DNA of 61,638 nucleotides from the IMG/VR virus record IMGVR_UViG_3300029309_000027, positions 1-61,638 of that record. One strand, written 5' to 3'. Numbering within the stretch: position 1 is the stretch's first letter; every line of letters begins with the position of its first letter. The stretch is from a virus. Its lineage: Duplodnaviria > Caudoviricetes. A model generated the notes under the pieces. That model made no database searches and was not told where the DNA came from. It was given only the letters and a program-made list of their open reading frames with translations. Of the stretch, positions 1,830 through 56,628 are shown piece by piece. The position numbers were made by a program, and so were the translations under genes.

Positions 1830-4800
1830 AGAACAGAAAGAAAAAGGCCCCTGGTGCCTACCTCAAGAAAAAAAAAGTAAAGAAGTATCAAGAGGGGGGT
1901 AAGGAGCCTGGGGTAAAAGACCTATTGAGTTACCTCGAGGGTTTTGACCCTAATAGGCGCATGCAAGTCCCTACTTCTGATGCCTTCGATATCCCAGTAG
2001 CTCAAGTCAATCTCCCTGCTGCTGAAGTGGTGACAGAGGGGACAGAGACCACTGTAAACCGCATGCTGCCTGAGCGCCTGGCCAAAACCGAAGGGGACCT
2101 GGCGGCGATCTACAAGGAACTTGGTAGTGAGGGGGTCGATAAGTACCTGGATATGACCCAAGGGGTAGTGGATGCACAGAACAGGGCGTATGAGCTCATT
2201 GAGCCTTTCTTGTACCTGACCCCGATGGGGACCCCAGCAATGCTTAACCATATTGTCAATAACCTAGAGGATTACAACCCACAGGATCCTGAGGGGGCGC
2301 TGAACCTGGCTGGTGCTCTCGCTACGTTTGGTAGAGGCAAAGCCCCACAGCCTGTTACTATTGCAGAGCGTTTTGCCATGCAGGGGCTGAAGGATAAGGT
2401 GACAGAGAAGTTCAGGCAGATCTTCCCGCGTAAACCTGAGATTGTCCCTGGTACTGGTCGCCCTCAGGGCGCCCCGTCACAATCTGGTATGTTCAGCGCA
2501 ATGGAAGAGGCAGCTACAGAAGCAGAGTTTGCAAGAACACTAGCTCTCCCAGGGTCGCAAACTCCAGCAGCAAGAATTTCCCCCCTGGCAGAACAGACTT
2601 TCCGTAGGGATGATGCATCAGGTCTAGCAGCCTTGACACGCTTAATATCTGACCCAAAAACAAAGTTTGAAGACCTGCCCCGCCTGGCCCAATCTGCGAT
2701 CACGGGGCGGCATGCTTCGTATGATGATAACAAACCTGGCTATCAAATCATTCGCAATGCTTTGTTGGCCAGGGGGTATGTCAATCCCGATCGTGATTCT
2801 GCTCCAGGCTATACTCTCTTTCAAAACAGAAGTGCTGGTAGTCTAGAACCTTCAAGCTTTACTCTTCTGGAGGACACGAGAACCTGGCGGCAAACAAAAC
2901 AGGGTAATACCCTAGGCGAGATGGGGTCGTACAACCCTTGGTCGGTCAATCCATTTGTGGGATCAAATAAAGCGCTGGCAAAAAATATCCAGCAGATCCC
3001 CCTTCTGATAGGAGATAAGTTCTTGAACAAGGTTCGTAAGCAGAAAGGCACTGGACTTTTGGAAATCGAATCCCTCAAAGAGCAGCTCAATGCAAAAGGG
3101 GTAAAAGAAAAAGACAGGGCGTTGATTTTAGACCTCGTTGACAATCTCACTGAGCATGATATGTTACCTCAAGAGGGCTATATCGACCCAAGTCAGCTCA
3201 GGGGATATATCGCCGCGTACTACACGGACAACAGAACTACGGGTCAATTCTTTGACCCTGAAGATTTTCTAGATGAAGATGGTCGTCGTCTCTTCGAGGA
3301 TGGACAACTTGGAATCGATCAAGCCGATAATTACTTGAACTTCAAGTACTCTGGTTACGGGATGAAAAACCTGGGGTATAAGACAGTACCTGTTGATGGA
3401 GTAGACGTCCGAAACAATTTCTTTGACCCCGCAGGCAACCCCTTCCAGATCCAGATCTACGGTGTAGCGGCAGAAAATCCTACGTTAGCACCAAGCTATG
3501 CTACGGGATACCTGTATGAAAGTCAAGAGGGACACATGGGTCATGTGAGAGAAATCTTGGTCACACCAAAAGATGGGGGGGCCAAGAGGCACTACATTGT
3601 TGAGATACAGTCTAACGCCCTGCAGAAAAACAAGCTACCAGAAAATCTGCAGTATATTGAACCCAGGGCCATTCACGCATCGGCTAGACCAGAGCTAGAT
3701 GGGAAAATGAAATTCCTCAACCTATCTACTGGCCTGGATGCGGAAGCTGTTTTTGGTGATCCCAATCCGTTGAACAGTGCCTTGTGGGCCACCACGGATC
3801 CCTACAGCAAGTTTCGACAGCACGGCAGGATCGATAACATACCTGAAATGGTAGAGGATATGCCACATGCATACGACCCTAAATACTGGGATGGGGTTGT
3901 GGAGTATCACAACAACCTGCTCCGAAAGATCGGAGATACTAATGATTTCGGATCCAGTGGGTATGCAGGGCGGCGACTGCTAGAGCAGGGTACTAAGCAA
4001 ACCAGAGAGTTTGCTGCAGATGAACTTCGACAGAATCTTCGAGACATGGTCGATCGGCAAAAACGTGACGCCATAGACAAGGGCTTTGTTACGTACCTGC
4101 CTAAGACGGTACAGGGGACAAACTTCACCGAAGCGGAGATAGAGAACCACCCGTTGGTAGAAGACTTGAGGGTAAGCCGTGAGGGGATTTATACTGTTTA
4201 CCTGCCTGATGGGATCGTGTATGTGACTAAGAAGTATAGAGGGGGCGAGGATGTTTCATCAATCATCACGGGAGACCTAAGCGAAATCACAAGAGTGCTG
4301 ATGAACGATCATTGGGGCCGTTTTTCGGATAAAATGTATTTTGCTCGTCAGGTACAATTCTATGGGTATATCCCTGTCACGTACAGGGATGTATTAGGTA
4401 CAAATATTACGATGTTCCCAGACCAGGTCATGGCGCCTCTGGAGGATCAGTGGAAAATGGCTAATCTGGCCACGCGCAATGCATCTTTGGACCTTCAAGA
4501 ATATGTTACTGAGCAGGGTCAAAATGCCAGTCGTCTGCAGCAGTATCTGGAAATGAACGACTTGAACCCCCCTGGCACGTTTACTGACGCTCGGCTTCAG
4601 GATTCATTTGATCAGGAGGCTGAGTTCTACAACATGCAGAGCAAGTTGAGGGCGCTCTATGAGGAGGTAAACATCGATCAACTAGAAAAGTGGGATAGAC
4701 GTCCGAAAGTCCCGAAAAACAATCCTGAGCAAAAAAACCTACTGAAAAACAAGACTCAGTTCATGTTGACCGAGTACTTGACGGACCTAATCGGTACATA

Positions 4801-5554: not shown

Positions 5555-5685
5555 GAGAAGAAGAGTGGGATACCCCCACGTTCCTAGACAAGAAGAAGCT
5601 TCAGGAGACAGAAGAGAAACTGGAGTCAGGGGAGATCACCTGCAACATCGACTCCCCAGAGGACTGCGAATCCTGCTCTGGCTAA
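5551..5685 (+). CDS. 44-aa acidic Cys-motif peptide ending CNIDSPEDCESCSG
   Basis: ATG at 5551 overlaps the upstream TGA; fills the gap before the next promoter. Confidence 0.7.
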   Translation: MREEEWDTPTFLDKKKLQETEEKLESGEITCNIDSPEDCESCSG

Positions 5686-5691
5686 TCATCT

Positions 5692-5699
5692 TATATTTG
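5692..5699 (+). promoter_or_regulatory. -7 promoter box TATATTTG (leaderless, 4 nt before ATG)
   Basis: TAnnTTTG; TTATATTTG recurs before six + strand genes. Confidence 0.75.
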
Positions 5700-5703
5700 T
5701 AAT

Positions 5704-9061: not shown

Positions 9062-9341
9062 GAAGTTTACGACTTTGGATGCTGCCAAGCGTCTGATGAA
9101 GAGCATGGAGGTGGCTATAGATAACATGATTGAGGAGATCAAAAAACCTGTAGACTCTGAGATCAATGGTAGTGCTAGAAAAGCTGAACTACAGTCCATT
9201 AAGCAGACAGCGATAGATTGTAAAGAGTTGCTTGTTGAAAGACAGAAGCTAGAGCAGATGATGAAAGATCTTACATTGGGTGGGCACGTCTCCGAGGGTA
9301 AGGATTACACTGGGGGGTTTGCCGAAAAATTCTCGAAATGA
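9051..9341 (+). CDS. Helical protein, possible terminase small subunit
   Basis: Start re-assigned to MSSKKF at 9051; coiled-coil ending GFAEKFSK; near terL. Confidence 0.45.
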   Translation: MSSKKFTTLDAAKRLMKSMEVAIDNMIEEIKKPVDSEINGSARKAELQSIKQTAIDCKELLVERQKLEQMMKDLTLGGHVSEGKDYTGGFAEKFSK

Positions 9342-9643
9342 AAGTAGAAGACACTCTCCCGCACGACGCCCTCATGATCGCTTTAGAGGACAACGAATGC
9401 CTTTTGGCTGACGGGTTTGACTCGGCCCTTATTGGCATCACGGAGGGGCCAAACCCAGTTGCAGTTTACGACATCAACAGAATGATCGAGCACCTCTTTA
9501 AGAAGGAGGGTATGACTCCAGAAGACGCTCGAGAGTATTTAGAGTTTAATGTTATCGGTGCTTATGTTGGGGAGAAGACCCCGCTGTACATTGATTTAGA
9601 TTTTGGTAGGGCGTGTGACATAGGCCACCCAGATGAGTTCTGA
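9338..9643 (+). CDS. Phage hypothetical protein
   Basis: LADGFDSALIG...EDAREYLEFNVIGAYVGEKTP motif. Confidence 0.75.
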   Translation: MKVEDTLPHDALMIALEDNECLLADGFDSALIGITEGPNPVAVYDINRMIEHLFKKEGMTPEDAREYLEFNVIGAYVGEKTPLYIDLDFGRACDIGHPDEF

Positions 9644-9651
9644 GTTTTGTT

Positions 9652-11769
9652 ATGCTGACAGAAGTAAAAGGCTATGAAGAAAAAGCTGTGGGCATTTGCC
9701 CCAACGGTACGCTGGGCGACCACATCGAAATCGGTGGGGTTCTCATTGTCCTTCCCAAGGCCCCTAAAGTCAGAGACATCCTCTTCCACGATCTTGCCGT
9801 TGAGGATCAGCGATGGAGGAGAACTGATCTACCAAAAGAGATATCGCGTATACGCTCTATGGATGAGTGGGCGGAAATGCCGAGGGAATTTAGAGAAAAG
9901 TTTCGTCCATATATCGAAGAAGAGTTTCGGCGTAGGCGTGAAGGGGTTTGGTTTTATAATCGAGGTGATGCTACATACATCACTGGTCGGCACTATATGA
10001 TGCTGCAGTGGTCAGTGCTCGACGTGGGGGCGCCGTACTACCTTGAATTTCAAAGAGATATATTCTTACATTTGGCTGCGTGTGAGGCAGACCCTCGTTG
10101 TATTGGACAGCTATATACTAAGTGCCGTAGATCAGGATACACTAACATATGTTCTTCTGTCATCGTTGACGAGGCTACCCAGGTAAAAGACAAGCTCCTG
10201 GGGATACAGAGTAAGACGGGTAAAGACGCACAAGAGAACATCTTTATGAAGAAGGTGGTCGCTATGTTTCGTAAGTACCCCTTCTTCTTTAAGCCCATCC
10301 AAGACGGCACCACCAACCCGCGTATGGAGCTTGCTTTCCGTGAGCCATCTAAAAAGATTACGAAGAACAACAAGACGGCCACAGTTGGGGACGCCTTGAA
10401 TACAGTGATTAACTGGAAGAATACGACTAACAACGCCTACGACGGGGAGAAGCTGCACTTATTGTATTTAGATGAGGCAGGGAAATGGGAAAAACCCACA
10501 GATATAAGAGAGGCTTGGAGGATTCAGAGGACCTGTTTGATAGTGGGTCGGAAGGTGGTCGGAAAGGCTATGGTCGGAAGCACCGTAAACCCCATGGGAA
10601 AAGGGGGAAGAGAGTACAAGGACCTCTGGGCGGATTCGAATCCTGGGGAGAGGAACAAGAATGGTAGGACCAGGTCTGGTCTATACAGGTTGTTCATCCC
10701 TGCATACGATTCCTTAGAGGGGTTCTTTGATCAGTACGGTAAATCTGTTGTAGAAGACCCTGAGGATATGGTGATGGGGATTGATGGGGAGATGATCCAC
10801 ATGGGTGCTAAGACGTTTCTAAAAAACGAGCGAGACAGCTTGCGCCACGATGCTTCTGAGTTAAACGAAACAGTTCGTCAGTTTCCCTTTACAGAAGACG
10901 AAGCGTTCAGAGATAGCATTGAGTCCACCCTATTTAATATCGGCCACATCTACGAGCAGGTGGAGCACAACGACTCTCTGTACCCCAACCCAATAGTATC
11001 TGGACAATTCTCTTGGAAGGGTGGGGTAGAAGACAGTGAGGTCGTCTTTACCCCAGACCCCAATGGCAGATTCAAGGTGGCGTGGATGCCGCCCCCAGCA
11101 CTTCGGAACGTCAAGAGTTATGAGAAAAGCAAAAGAGTACCACCTCACGTACACCTTGGTTGTGGCGGGGTGGATAGCTACGATCTCGACGCTACTGTGG
11201 ATGGGAGAGGATCCAAAGGTGCGCTCCATTTGTACAACAAGTTCAATATGGAGGTGCCTGCTAATATGTTTGTTCTTGAGTACGCTGCCCGTCCGCCGCT
11301 GGCTTCGATATTTTATGAAGATGTGCTTATGGCGGCGGTCTTCTACGGGTACCCCATCTTAATCGAGAACAACAAGTATGGTATCGCCAGGTACTTTGAG
11401 CAGCGTGGTTACGATGGCTATCTCATGGATCGCCCAAAACACTTGCTGTCTGGTAGTGGTGCGGTCAAAGTAAAAACCAAGGGGATCCCATCTAATTCTT
11501 TAGATGTGATTCAGTCCCATGCTCAGGCTATCGAGGCTTACATACATGAACACGTCGGCATCAACAGAGACACTGGCGAGATGGGGAAGATGTATTTCAA
11601 CGCTACTATGGAGGACTGGATTGGTTATGACATCAACAATAGAACTAAGTTTGACTTGACAATTAGTTCTGGTCTTGCATTATTAGCTTCACAAAAAGTA
11701 AAACCCACTGCCCCCCCTACAGACTTTAGCGAAAGACGCTTTTTTAGGCGATATAAAGTCAGGGGCTAA
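9652..11769 (+). CDS. terL: Terminase large subunit
   Basis: Walker A-like KCRRSG, Walker B LYLDEAGK, GST coupling motif, nuclease GVDSYD, ENNK. Confidence 0.93.
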   Translation: MLTEVKGYEEKAVGICPNGTLGDHIEIGGVLIVLPKAPKVRDILFHDLAVEDQRWRRTDLPKEISRIRSMDEWAEMPREFREKFRPYIEEEFRRRREGVWFYNRGDATYITGRHYMMLQWSVLDVGAPYYLEFQRDIFLHLAACEADPRCIGQLYTKCRRSGYTNICSSVIVDEATQVKDKLLGIQSKTGKDAQENIFMKKVVAMFRKYPFFFKPIQDGTTNPRMELAFREPSKKITKNNKTATVGDALNTVINWKNTTNNAYDGEKLHLLYLDEAGKWEKPTDIREAWRIQRTCLIVGRKVVGKAMVGSTVNPMGKGGREYKDLWADSNPGERNKNGRTRSGLYRLFIPAYDSLEGFFDQYGKSVVEDPEDMVMGIDGEMIHMGAKTFLKNERDSLRHDASELNETVRQFPFTEDEAFRDSIESTLFNIGHIYEQVEHNDSLYPNPIVSGQFSWKGGVEDSEVVFTPDPNGRFKVAWMPPPALRNVKSYEKSKRVPPHVHLGCGGVDSYDLDATVDGRGSKGALHLYNKFNMEVPANMFVLEYAARPPLASIFYEDVLMAAVFYGYPILIENNKYGIARYFEQRGYDGYLMDRPKHLLSGSGAVKVKTKGIPSNSLDVIQSHAQAIEAYIHEHVGINRDTGEMGKMYFNATMEDWIGYDINNRTKFDLTISSGLALLASQKVKPTAPPTDFSERRFFRRYKVRG

Positions 11770-55495: not shown

Positions 55496-55662
55496 GCTTG
55501 CTCGTTTTTCCATTGGTCAGCGCGAAAGGCGGTTTCCGCTTTTGAGATTTCGACGTAGACCTCGAAGCCTACGTGAACGTATACCGACCCGTCTTTTTCG
55601 TATGCGTCCACATCAATAGACTCGAAGTGCTTGAGGCAATCCTTTATTACAATCTTGTTCAT
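55492..55662 (-). CDS. 56-aa hypothetical protein (absent from ORF track)
   Basis: MNKIVIKDCLKHF...WKNEQA; ATGA overlap with the next gene. Confidence 0.6.
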   Translation of the reverse strand: MNKIVIKDCLKHFESIDVDAYEKDGSVYVHVGFEVYVEISKAETAFRADQWKNEQA

Positions 55663-55676
55663 GTGTTCTGTGTTTG

Positions 55677-55771
55677 TGATGCGGGAGGGAATCGAACCCT
55701 CCAGTGTAATCTGTCACTTGGGCATTCGCGTTACCCGACTGGAACCATACACTTTCCGCCACTTCGCATCA
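55677..55771 (-). ncRNA. tRNA-like RNA lacking a D-stem, with an extended anticodon arm
   Basis: TGATGCG/CGCATCA acceptor; GAGGG-TTCGATT-CCCTC T-arm; AGTGTA/TACACT helix. Confidence 0.7.
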
Positions 55772-55774
55772 TGT

Positions 55775-55968
55775 AGTAGGCGCTTGGCTCTTCGGCGGCC
55801 TACCGTGTGAGTAACTCTCAAGACATTACCTGTCGGGAAACCCGATATAATGTGAGAGTATAAACCTTGCCCCTGTCGAACCCAGTCGGGGTATTTCTCA
55901 CGCCGCTCATCCGTGGAGTGTCAGCTCCCGATGAGTGTTGCACTTCTGTCTGACACATATGCAACAGG
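55775..55968 (-). ncRNA. Putative structured RNA with kissing loop
   Basis: Five helices in a 200-nt gene-free gap; loop-loop complementarity TGTCAG/CTGACA; strand inferred from context. Confidence 0.55.
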
Positions 55969-55973
55969 TGTGT

Positions 55974-56420
55974 TTATCTTCTTCTCTTCCTGCGAACCTC
56001 CCCTGTGATAGGATGCGTGTTGCAATCCGATGCTCTCAGCCCTCGGTCATTAGCCCCTCTCTTCTTCTTCCGCTTGGCTCCCACGGGTGCAGGGGTGTCG
56101 AGCACTAGCTTGATCCCGCCTGGCAGGTGGGAGCGGAACTGCTTCATCTCCTCCTTAGTGGCTCCCCACTTCCCCACCCCTGTCATCAGCAGTTCCTGAA
56201 TGTCCTCCGAGTGTATGTGCGCTCGGAAGTAGGACGCCGCTCGACGGAGGGTCATCGCAGGTCCTCTCACCTTGTCCATCTCCTCATGCGTCATCGTGTT
56301 CCTCCACTCTGAACGAGGGCCGTGAACCCTGACGCAGAATTCCATCTCCTGCCTCGCTCTGTCTTCCAACACCTCGGCCATGTGCATGTCGAGGTGTACG
56401 GTTCGTGTGTACATATTCAT
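55974..56420 (-). CDS. Hypothetical protein with basic C-terminus
   Basis: 148 aa between RNA elements. Confidence 0.65.
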   Translation of the reverse strand: MNMYTRTVHLDMHMAEVLEDRARQEMEFCVRVHGPRSEWRNTMTHEEMDKVRGPAMTLRRAASYFRAHIHSEDIQELLMTGVGKWGATKEEMKQFRSHLPGGIKLVLDTPAPVGAKRKKKRGANDRGLRASDCNTHPITGEVRRKRRR

Positions 56421-56435
56421 TTGTTCTCGTGTTTG

Positions 56436-56508
56436 TGCCCGTGGCAGGAATCGAACCTGCGACCGACTGCTTAGAAGGCAGTTGCTCTATCCCCTGAGCT
56501 ACACGGGC
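56436..56508 (-). tRNA. tRNA-Arg(UCU), no encoded CCA
   Basis: GCCCGTG acceptor; GCTC/GAGC D-arm; ACTGC-CTTCTAA-GCAGT anticodon arm; GCAGG-TTCGATT-CCTGC T-arm. Confidence 0.95.
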
Positions 56509-56628
56509 GAACGGGGGGAGTCCCTAAACCCTCCCCCCTGGCATACTTCGAGGGACCAATCTCACGCTATGCTAAACGCTACAATGTGGGTTGCCCACAA
56601 GTTTAGTTGTGGGGTCCCCCCAACTGTC

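Follow-up and report, generated by a model that had tools for sequence, protein, structure and literature searches.

The window analysed here is the complete virus record IMGVR_UViG_3300029309_000027 of IMG/VR (61,638 bp). Small minus-strand genes fill its region from 46 to 61.6 kb, and their products include a primase-helicase, a PDDEXK nuclease, a Sak annealing protein, a DnaA-C HTH protein and a DUF7178 protein. Relatives of the large proteins among cultured phages are distant only, with the primase-helicase reaching no more than 32% identity. Within this early or replication gene region, with the primase-helicase, Sak and PDDEXK genes nearby, a 311-nt gap without a conserved reading frame (55663-55973) separates the minus-strand ORFs P0001 and P0002. 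The gap holds a structured RNA, named RNA-B here, and a tRNA-like element (TLE) (Table 1). Neither a sigma-70-like promoter nor a minus-strand terminator was found between 55300 and 56800.

Table 1. Coordinates of the features in and around the RNA-B gap
Feature	Coordinates	Strand	Description
tRNA-Arg(UCU)	56435-56508	-	called by ARAGORN; only Rfam gathering-level match in the window
P0001	55974-56420	-	ORF, 148 aa, helical, basic tail; stop codon adjoins RNA-B
RNA-B	55771-55970	-	conserved structured non-coding RNA (homologues, identity, covariation)
H1	55936-55966	-	stem (55960-55966 with 55936-55942) and 17-nt loop; loop segment UGUCAG at 55950-55955
H2	55906-55935	-	bulged 11-pair stem (55925-55935 with 55906-55918); loop CUGACA at 55919-55924
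Middle domain	55807-55901	-	closing helix GUGAG (55897-55901) with CUCAC (55807-55811)
Long interrupted hairpin	55814-55859	-	inside middle domain; lineage-specific insertion
H5	55775-55804	-	terminal hairpin; ACAU (55771-55774), 4 nt, separates it from the TLE
TLE	55677-55770	-	94 nt, cloverleaf-like; proposed RNase P site
P0002	55492-55662	-	ORF, 56 aa

P0001 is an accessory insertion, separate from RNA-B, and is missing between the upstream TLE and RNA-B in three of the related loci described below (L096, L097 and L100). Its metagenomic homologues are 73-99% identical to it, but it falls in no Pfam or PHROG family and has no relative in the viral contig set. The AlphaFold model of P0001 is all-helical (mean pLDDT 66), and a Foldseek comparison of this model with the PDB gave no match below E 0.6.

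The TLE shows an acceptor stem of 6 bp (the seventh position being an A.C mismatch), a discriminator A, hairpins resembling the D, anticodon and variable arms, and a canonical T-arm (GAGGG UUCGAUU CCCUC). Its cloverleaf fold has an energy of -33.7 kcal/mol, and the MFE structure accounts for 33% of the ensemble. It departs from tRNA criteria in the 6-bp acceptor stem (vs 7-bp), in a 4-nt connector (vs 2-nt) and in an anticodon-like loop, ACGCGAA, that has C at position 33 instead of U33. ARAGORN does not call it as a tRNA, and its best Rfam match, to tRNA-Sec, scored 22.5 bits (E 0.13) where the gathering level is 47. No tmRNA was found by ARAGORN in the window or in the homologous loci, and a search of four homologous loci gave only 17-nt T-arm matches to the tmRNA model RF00023, at 11.7-14.5 bits. 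A 46-nt version reduced to acceptor stem and T-arm, the mini-TLE (GAUGCGA-AUGGUU...-GAGGG UUCGAUU CCCUC-CCGCAUC-A), occurs in some relatives. Both versions have the form of t-elements, an acceptor stem on a canonical T-arm beside the end of another RNA.

Relatives of RNA-B and their flanking elements

RNA-B was found in nine marine phage loci: the window, L081, L082, L083, L084, L088, L096, L097 and L100. These represent six distinct core sequences; L080, which is identical to the window, and L087 duplicate two of the loci and were not counted. Loci L080-L084 came, with their flanking DNA, from a profile-guided scan of JGI metagenomes for P0001, and L088, L096, L097 and L100 from IMG/VR by means of patterns built from invariant stretches. 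A covariance model of H1 and H2 (R1) scored 84-106 bits over the nine loci and confirmed the four IMG/VR loci at 84-94 bits. L096, L097, L100 and L087 were also recovered with a loop-independent pattern, an extra match of which (L122) proved to be a chance match inside a coding region. Based on tblastx comparisons, L096, L097 and L100 are related phages that carry the RNA at a syntenic position. The fourth, L088, belongs to an unrelated phage with a GC content of 39%, and the common ground found by tblastx was the tRNA and RNA segment only. It retains H1-H2 alone, which make up the whole 67-nt spacer from a tRNA-Met to a tRNA-Arg. Since the pattern used to find L088 contained the H2 loop, the identity of this loop in L088 is by construction.

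Searches elsewhere gave nothing comparable. A BLASTn search with positions 55600-56100 against 50,697 GenBank phages returned no match, and the 311-nt gap matched nothing by blastn and nhmmer in 78 related-phage loci collected via the DUF7178 gene, in which R1 also scored 0 of 78. The region is missing from L002, the closest whole-genome relative, where a T-arm-like match sits, by our reading, within a DNA methyltransferase-like ORF. Exact 22- and 24-mers spanning variable positions had no matches. In bacterial and archaeal genomes a strict pattern gave 0 matches and a loose one 17 loci, none of which exceeded 18 bits with R1. Three of these 17 represent a repeat within a single Verrucomicrobia MAG.

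The elements that flank the RNA differ among loci in a regular way. On its 5' side lies the P0001 stop codon in the window, L081, L083 and L084, the stop codon of an ORF in L082, a TLE in L096, L097 and L100, and a tRNA-Met in L088; the tRNA-Met or TLE thus placed directly upstream in four loci ends 5 nt before H1. On its 3' side the window has the 94-nt TLE after 4 nt; L081, L083, L084 and L097 have the 46-nt mini-TLE after 4 nt; L082 and L100 have a tRNA-Arg(CCU) and L088 a tRNA-Arg(UCU), while the L096 contig ends there. A tRNA-Arg or TLE therefore follows within 4-9 nt in all eight loci with downstream sequence. The site upstream of P0001 is occupied by a TLE in L081 and L083-L086, by tRNA-Met in L082 and by tRNA-Arg(UCU) in the window, where this tRNA fills the site at which relatives have the upstream TLE or tRNA-Met. 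Real tRNAs, the degenerate cloverleaf and the minihelices are thus interchangeable at these two positions.

Structure, covariation and strand

Across the loci RNA-B measures about 155-200 nt, of which about 60 nt form the core. Its 5' end is proposed to lie near 55970 on the basis of the homologues in L097, L100 and L096, which begin directly after the discriminator base of the upstream TLE, and its 3' end is proposed at 55771, the last base before G1 of the downstream TLE. The two adjacent hairpins with complementary loops noted in the preliminary description (H1 and H2) are indeed present at the coordinates given there, and both covary in the homologues. The conserved stem of H1 comprises 6 bp (55960-55965 with 55937-55942), the extra U-A pair being lost in L083 and L088. 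Its apical pair is A-U in three and C-G in three of the six distinct sequences, and the remaining five pairs are invariant. The H1 loop contains the invariant GUGUCAGA, and its variation is limited to three positions, all outside GUGUCAGA; the kissing segment UGUCAG is flanked by linkers of 4 and 7 nt, of which the 3' one is purine-rich. In H2 the apical stem reads GGAG/CUCC, replaced by GAGG/CCUC in L096 and L097 and by GGGG/CCCC in L100, whose basal stem has U.G and G.U pairs. Pair 45-61 of H2 (numbered along the minus strand, the window coordinate being 55974 minus this number) varies between G-C, G.U and A-U.

Over the nine copies the nested pairs of H1 and H2 were 99.3% paired, a percentage inflated by fitting the alignment to the model and by deriving the structure from the same sequences; slid controls gave 23-49%. 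In four pairs both partners had changed. The covariation score was 0.194 vs 0.116 +/- 0.020 in shuffles, none of 500 reaching 0.194, with the reservation that diversity is low (six core sequences) and that the changes in L096, L097 and L100 may represent one or two evolutionary events. The H2 loop of 6 nt, CUGACA, is perfectly complementary to UGUCAG, and both segments are unchanged throughout the six distinct sequences, five of these having been identified without use of the loops. The preliminary description had spoken of a perfect kissing loop. The complementarity and its conservation stand; since the two segments never vary, covariation lends the kiss no support, and the loop-loop pairing is plausible and compatible with the data rather than proven.

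The remainder of the RNA is more variable. The helix that closes the multibranch middle domain, GUGAG/CUCAC, is there as previously described and is invariant in seven of seven sequences, and its extension covaries (AAAU/AUUU in L082 vs AGGU/AUCU in L097 and L100). The domain contains the invariant CCCCGACUGG ... GGGG ... AGGU sequences, but its interior is ambiguous: CCCC/GGGG is invariant, yet RNAalifold favours an alternative on the same G run (GACU/GGUY plus GU/GC against AC/GU), which is changed on both sides. A further RNAalifold helix, between the 5' leader (CAC-CC) and GG-GUG, was rejected, being an alternative to the closing helix that covaries and having no counterpart in L088. Two hairpins recognized earlier in this domain exist in the window but were not found to be general. 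The long interrupted hairpin is shared by the window, L081, L083 and L084, where the sole change is in the apical loop (UUU to UAA), and is cleanly missing in L082, L097 and L100. In the other hairpin a different loop takes the place of GGTTCGA in L097 and L100, and in L082, L083 and L084 an A to U change breaks the inner CUG/CAG helix. H5, on the other hand, corresponds to the final hairpin reported about 4 nt before the tRNA mimic and shows compensatory change between the window type and L082, L097 and L100 (C-G to U-A, and terminal G.U to G-C). The comparison of homologues that the preliminary description had proposed as a check therefore revealed compensatory changes in H1, H2, the closing-helix extension and the last hairpin.

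In the loci found through P0001, the gap shares 93.5-97.5% identity with the window over its first 211 nt, vs 77.6-89.3% for the P0001 gene (RNA-B/P0001 pairs of 97.5/89.3, 94.6/77.6 and 93.5/81.3%). These identities point to purifying selection on RNA-B, which changes more slowly than the adjacent P0001 gene.

Folding energy is a poorer guide. The 194-nt fold of the minus strand has -66.3 kcal/mol (z -2.40; 1 of 200 shuffles as good) and that of the plus strand -72.3 kcal/mol (z -4.02; 0 of 200). When every 194-nt window of the genome was compared after correction for GC, the region fell outside the 12 lowest on either strand, so the folding stability is ordinary for this genome and the signal modest. 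The middle domains of L097 and L082 fold no better than shuffles (z +0.80 and -0.24). A 6-nt complementarity between the H1 and H2 loops arises in 0.4% of loop shuffles. If all seven unpaired segments are considered, a match between some pair of them arises in 10.6%. Evidence from the window sequence alone is thus weak. Folding no better than shuffles together with a lack of conserved pairing had been named as grounds for dismissing the structure; what we found is a modest energy that beats most shuffles, and a pairing that is conserved. It is the comparison of homologues that lifts the feature above chance and establishes RNA-B as real.

The strand, left uncertain in the preliminary description, can be assigned. 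The wobble changes and the orientation of the neighbours settle the question in favour of the minus strand. Three kinds of change in H2 (C-G to U.G, A-U to G.U and G-C to G.U) keep pairing on the minus strand only. The GACU/GGUU helix, the extension of the closing helix and the last hairpin contain further G.U pairs, which are likewise valid only there. The flanking tRNAs, tRNA-like elements and genes are all on the minus strand.

Comparison with known RNAs

A search of Rfam 15 (4227 models) found nothing overlapping 55771-55970 at gathering level or up to E = 10, and nothing overlapping the RNA-B homologues in L081, L088, L097 and L100 up to E = 1. The GOLLD and ROOL models did not match RNA-B either. 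RNA-B belongs to none of the families with which we compared it (Rfam, t-elements/mascRNA, GOLLD/ROOL, T4 RNAs and pRNA), and the earlier suggestion of a novel ncRNA agrees with what was found, a conserved, covarying, non-coding sequence without a match in Rfam 15. No description of RNA-B was found in the literature searched, although the supplements of motif-discovery papers, which lay outside our search, might list it. The closest known RNAs are, by working principle, the t-elements and mascRNA-type tags, by biology GOLLD, ROOL and the stable RNAs of T4, and by loop design the pRNA of phi29.

The tRNA cluster of phage T4 encodes the stable 'species 1' and 'species 2' RNAs, which are matured by the tRNA-processing machinery. 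Compared by description only, these are alike in being small stable RNAs among phage tRNAs, and the phages and hosts differ. Adjacent hairpins are fixed alongside each other by pairing between their loops in purine riboswitches and in hammerhead ribozymes, but RNA-B has neither a ligand-pocket three-way junction nor a catalytic core, nor a match to these families. Processing arrangements similar to that proposed below are known from the haloarchaeal t-element upstream of 5S rRNA and from the MALAT1/mascRNA module. The likeness to t-elements and mascRNA lies in a non-decoding tRNA-shaped module beside an RNA whose ends RNase P and RNase Z define, as they would here. The difference is that the module lies here in a phage operon, and that the RNA freed by the predicted cleavage would be a small structured ncRNA and not an mRNA, rRNA or lncRNA. 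For plant mitochondria, t-elements are described as tRNA-like structures marking the 5' and 3' ends of mRNAs (Forner et al. 2007, PMC1920247).

GOLLD and ROOL are described as large phage or prophage RNAs often found near tRNAs (Weinberg et al. 2017, PMC5737381), and multimers of both are reported from cryo-EM (bioRxiv 10.1101/2024.12.08.627333). As far as these descriptions go, RNA-B resembles them as an ornate phage-borne ncRNA adjoining tRNAs and probably co-transcribed with them. However, they are about 580-800 nt long, whereas RNA-B, of about 155-200 nt, is 3-4 times smaller. The phi29-family pRNA is presented as a small phage RNA with two mutually complementary loops (PMC4201828), a feature that RNA-B shares with it. 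The pRNA loops join neighbouring molecules into a ring on the packaging motor, whereas the geometry of RNA-B allows pairing within one molecule. Moreover, RNA-B is located among early and replication genes and tRNAs and has no sequence or Rfam similarity to the pRNA.

Release, possible role and alternatives

Comparison of the loci argues that RNA-B is a genuine small non-coding RNA gene in a clade of uncultured marine phages, and we consider it rather probable that it is a new phage ncRNA freed from an operon transcript by tRNA-processing enzymes. RNA-B would be transcribed on the minus strand within the early-gene operon, without a promoter or terminator of its own, and punctuated by tRNA-shaped modules, one placed 4-9 nt downstream and another, in several relatives, directly upstream. 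Host RNase P would cut 5' of the downstream module at G55770 to generate the 3' end of RNA-B, leaving the stable H5 as a hairpin that could protect this end. Where an upstream module exists, tRNA 3'-end processing, putatively by RNase Z, would produce the 5' end. In the window lineage, with P0001 on the 5' side, the RNA may stay as a 3' extension of the mRNA unless another nuclease cuts. Bacterial RNase P prefers U at position -1, and an acceptor stem with a T-arm is its classic minimal substrate; every TLE copy has U at -1 and, after the acceptor strand, a GG that mimics the 'D-loop'. A release punctuated by tRNA-shaped elements thus seems well supported by the comparative anatomy of the loci.

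Concerning the fold, we propose that the H1-H2 pair is the functional core and that the downstream domains are variable additions. UGUCAG and CUGACA would most likely pair with each other in a compact pseudoknot-like fold, and, as estimated rather than computed from the linker lengths in the 17-nt loop, such a kiss within one molecule is sterically plausible. It is improbable, in our judgement, that the loops pair instead between molecules in the manner of phi29 pRNA, so that the core of about 60 nt, once excised from the transcript by tRNA-processing enzymes, would self-assemble into a ring, filament or cage that could scaffold or sequester a tRNA-related factor during infection. Such an assembly would be a miniature counterpart of those of ROOL and GOLLD and could serve, for example, as a decoy for a defence nuclease that cuts anticodon loops, an idea suggested by UGUCA and CUGACA, which read like complementary Asp and Val anticodon loops. 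If the loops did pair between molecules, RNA-B would be a minimal natural self-assembling RNA.

The hairpins might also act in cis as a mere spacer, insulating the folding of the neighbouring tRNA or TLE and, after the RNase P cut, stabilising the 3' end of the upstream mRNA (here that of P0001). A strong hairpin does precede every tRNA or TLE at these loci by 2-6 nt, including those unrelated to RNA-B, as illustrated by the hairpin at about 56513-56545 before the tRNA-Arg and by the GGGGG...CCCC hairpin that precedes the upstream TLE of L081, and a stop codon stands immediately before RNA-B in the window lineage. However, a spacer needs stems and not fixed loops, whereas in RNA-B it is the stems that vary, and GUGUCAGA, CUGACA and CCCCGACUGG do not. 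The H1-H2 core is nearly unchanged between two tRNAs of the unrelated low-GC phage L088, and in L097 the RNA has a TLE on each side, with no mRNA there to protect. We regard this explanation as unlikely, though it merits some weight; because the loops are invariant while the stems vary and the bare H1-H2 survives in an unrelated phage, we favour a specific fold or partner.

The remaining explanations fare worse. A self-cleaving ribozyme or a ligand-sensing riboswitch, which the preliminary description had considered, is highly unlikely: the invariant unpaired nucleotides and the possible pseudoknot would suit either, and self-cleaving ribozymes do occur in phage tRNA regions, but no Rfam model matches, those of the self-cleaving ribozymes (hammerhead, twister, pistol, hatchet, HDV-like and others) included, up to E = 10 in the window and up to E = 1 in four homologous loci. 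The RNA lies downstream of genes, or between tRNAs in L088, and outside any 5' leader. Self-cleavage would also be unnecessary because the ends of RNA-B coincide with tRNA or tRNA-like processing sites. Hardly any credence can be given to an element acting as DNA, whose inverted repeats would form a protein-binding, replication or recombination site, or an attP with a tRNA 3' end. This reading could account for the slightly better fold of the plus strand, for the inverted repeat formed by TGTCAG...CTGACA and for the repetition of the TLE 3' half on either side of P0001 in L081, L083 and L084. Against it, the G.U-type substitutions preserve pairing on one strand only, and no tyrosine or serine recombinase or integrase is encoded in the complete 61.6-kb record; the TLE is, besides, a whole minihelix rather than a tRNA 3' fragment, since its 5' acceptor strand is present. 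Least credible of all is a small protein gene, for which a 48-codon TTG ORF (55818-55964, minus strand) would be the candidate. In all six full-length homologues the in-phase sense frame stays open over some 50 codons or more, but the differences between the window and L097/L100 are mostly non-conservative in the protein and compensatory in the stems. In addition, the in-frame ATG is gone in L096, L097, L100 and L088, a 43-44-nt deletion changes the frame in L082, L097 and L100, and L088 has just 67 nt between its two tRNAs.

A contig of 166 nt from a metatranscriptomic library corresponds to positions 55807-55970 with 0 differences; it is compatible with an abundant discrete RNA and indicates presence in the library, which may contain DNA, but as a contig it proves neither transcription nor RNA ends. 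Run X2 is probably DNA. The two runs gave no cover of P0001, the TLE or P0002, a lack that carries no weight as evidence, and their cover at 56424-56525 was discarded as generic tRNA similarity to other organisms.

Phage tRNA regions hold several enigmatic structured RNAs, such as GOLLD, ROOL and the T4 RNAs, among which RNA-B would be far smaller and easier to study. Its core, about 60 nt long, shows clear covariation and fixed loops, and the RNA has moved between unrelated marine phages. The use of tRNA shape as punctuation is a principle well known from organelles, and we did not find it described for phage operons in the literature searched; the arrangement of these loci argues that phages may use tRNA shape as an RNA-processing 'punctuation mark'. 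In this respect the locus represents a natural experiment, in which real tRNAs, a 94-nt cloverleaf and 46-nt minihelices swap at two flanking positions.

P0001 and the tRNA-like elements beside RNA-B

The 148-aa product of P0001, the ORF whose stop codon abuts the structured RNA-B, is predicted to be helical with a tail rich in Lys and Arg, and it gave no family match in Pfam or PHROG. This ORF looks like a cassette put in between an upstream tRNA-like element (TLE) and RNA-B. Three of the loci that carry RNA-B (L096, L097 and L100) are devoid of P0001, and in L081, L083 and L084 the ORF is bordered on both sides by direct repeats of ~38 nt, which combine the 3' half of the TLE with the ACAAACAC..ATG leader.

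The cloverleaf-like TLE of the window and the mini-TLEs of its relatives have in common, by alignment, the acceptor strand, the AUGGUUC..GUCGGG linker and the T-arm. In the same alignment the window form has, on top of the mini-TLE parts, one insertion of about 14 nt and another of about 32 nt. The sequence of its anticodon-like loop is ACGCGAA. The window element is either a minihelix that has expanded or a tRNA in decay.

Positions of the features discussed
Feature	Location	Strand
P0001	window 55974-56420	-
P0001 homologue	L081 1283-1708	
TLE, 94 nt, cloverleaf-like	window 55677-55770	-
Mini-TLE, 46 nt	L081 1934-1979	
Mini-TLE, 46 nt	L097 9037-9083	-
Second structured leader	L081 1150-1231; L083 2870-2948; L085 2420-2505; L086 1840-1918	
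8-bp GC hairpin	window about 56513-56545	-
Extra hairpin GAGGG CUGACA CCCUC	L097 about 9305-9330; L100 about 1806-1854	-
GTGTCAG...CTGACAC inverted-motif repeat	L105 6300-6338; L109 1251-1289; L117 4047-4085	
Non-coding elements with tRNA-like ends	L042 ~9820-9955; L052 ~9326-9460; L046 ~9951-10052; L061 ~9269-9370; L049 ~9500-9612	+
tRNA-model match, 116 nt (40.7 bits)	L025 5717-5832	+
Acceptor/T-arm minihelices	L066 ~5632-5703; L011 ~4728-4795; L032 ~1481-1550; L025 ~87-155	

Hairpins preceding tRNA and tRNA-like modules

Across these loci a pattern is repeated: each tRNA or tRNA-like module is closely preceded by a strong hairpin. The GC hairpin of the window, GGGGGGAG ... CUCCCCCC, lies 4 nt 5' of tRNA-Arg(UCU). 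Immediately 5' of the upstream mini-TLE, four loci have a leader, GGGGUGUGAAGGGUGAGAGCGCACCACCC ... GGGGGUGAGAGGCCCC, which differs from RNA-B and is possibly a second ncRNA built like it. The extra hairpin of L097 and L100, placed 2 nt 5' of the upstream TLE, has a loop identical to that of RNA-B hairpin H2, and therefore these loci have two CUGACA loops versus one UGUCAG loop. The inverted-motif repeat, found on three contigs of a single Verrucomicrobia MAG, was rejected as an RNA-B homologue because R1, the covariance model of H1 and H2, matched only the L117 copy, with 12 bits.

tRNA-like ends and minihelices in related phages

Other phages with the DUF7178 gene have non-coding elements of about 115-165 nt that lie the same ~2-2.5 kb downstream of that gene. 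They start with AGCGAU or AGCAUU and end with a T-arm and the matching acceptor strand, and thus consist of a large insert between tRNA-like ends. None was called by ARAGORN or matched Rfam at gathering. Compensatory changes were observed between L046 (CCGCAU/AUGCGG) and L061 (CCCUAU/AUAGGG). In the tRNA-model match of L025, also uncalled by ARAGORN, the acceptor stem, D-arm and T-arm are all normal, with a long odd insert replacing the anticodon and variable region. At other positions, related phages bear minihelices of 42-47 nt in which an A-Y-G-G-U linker follows the acceptor strand.
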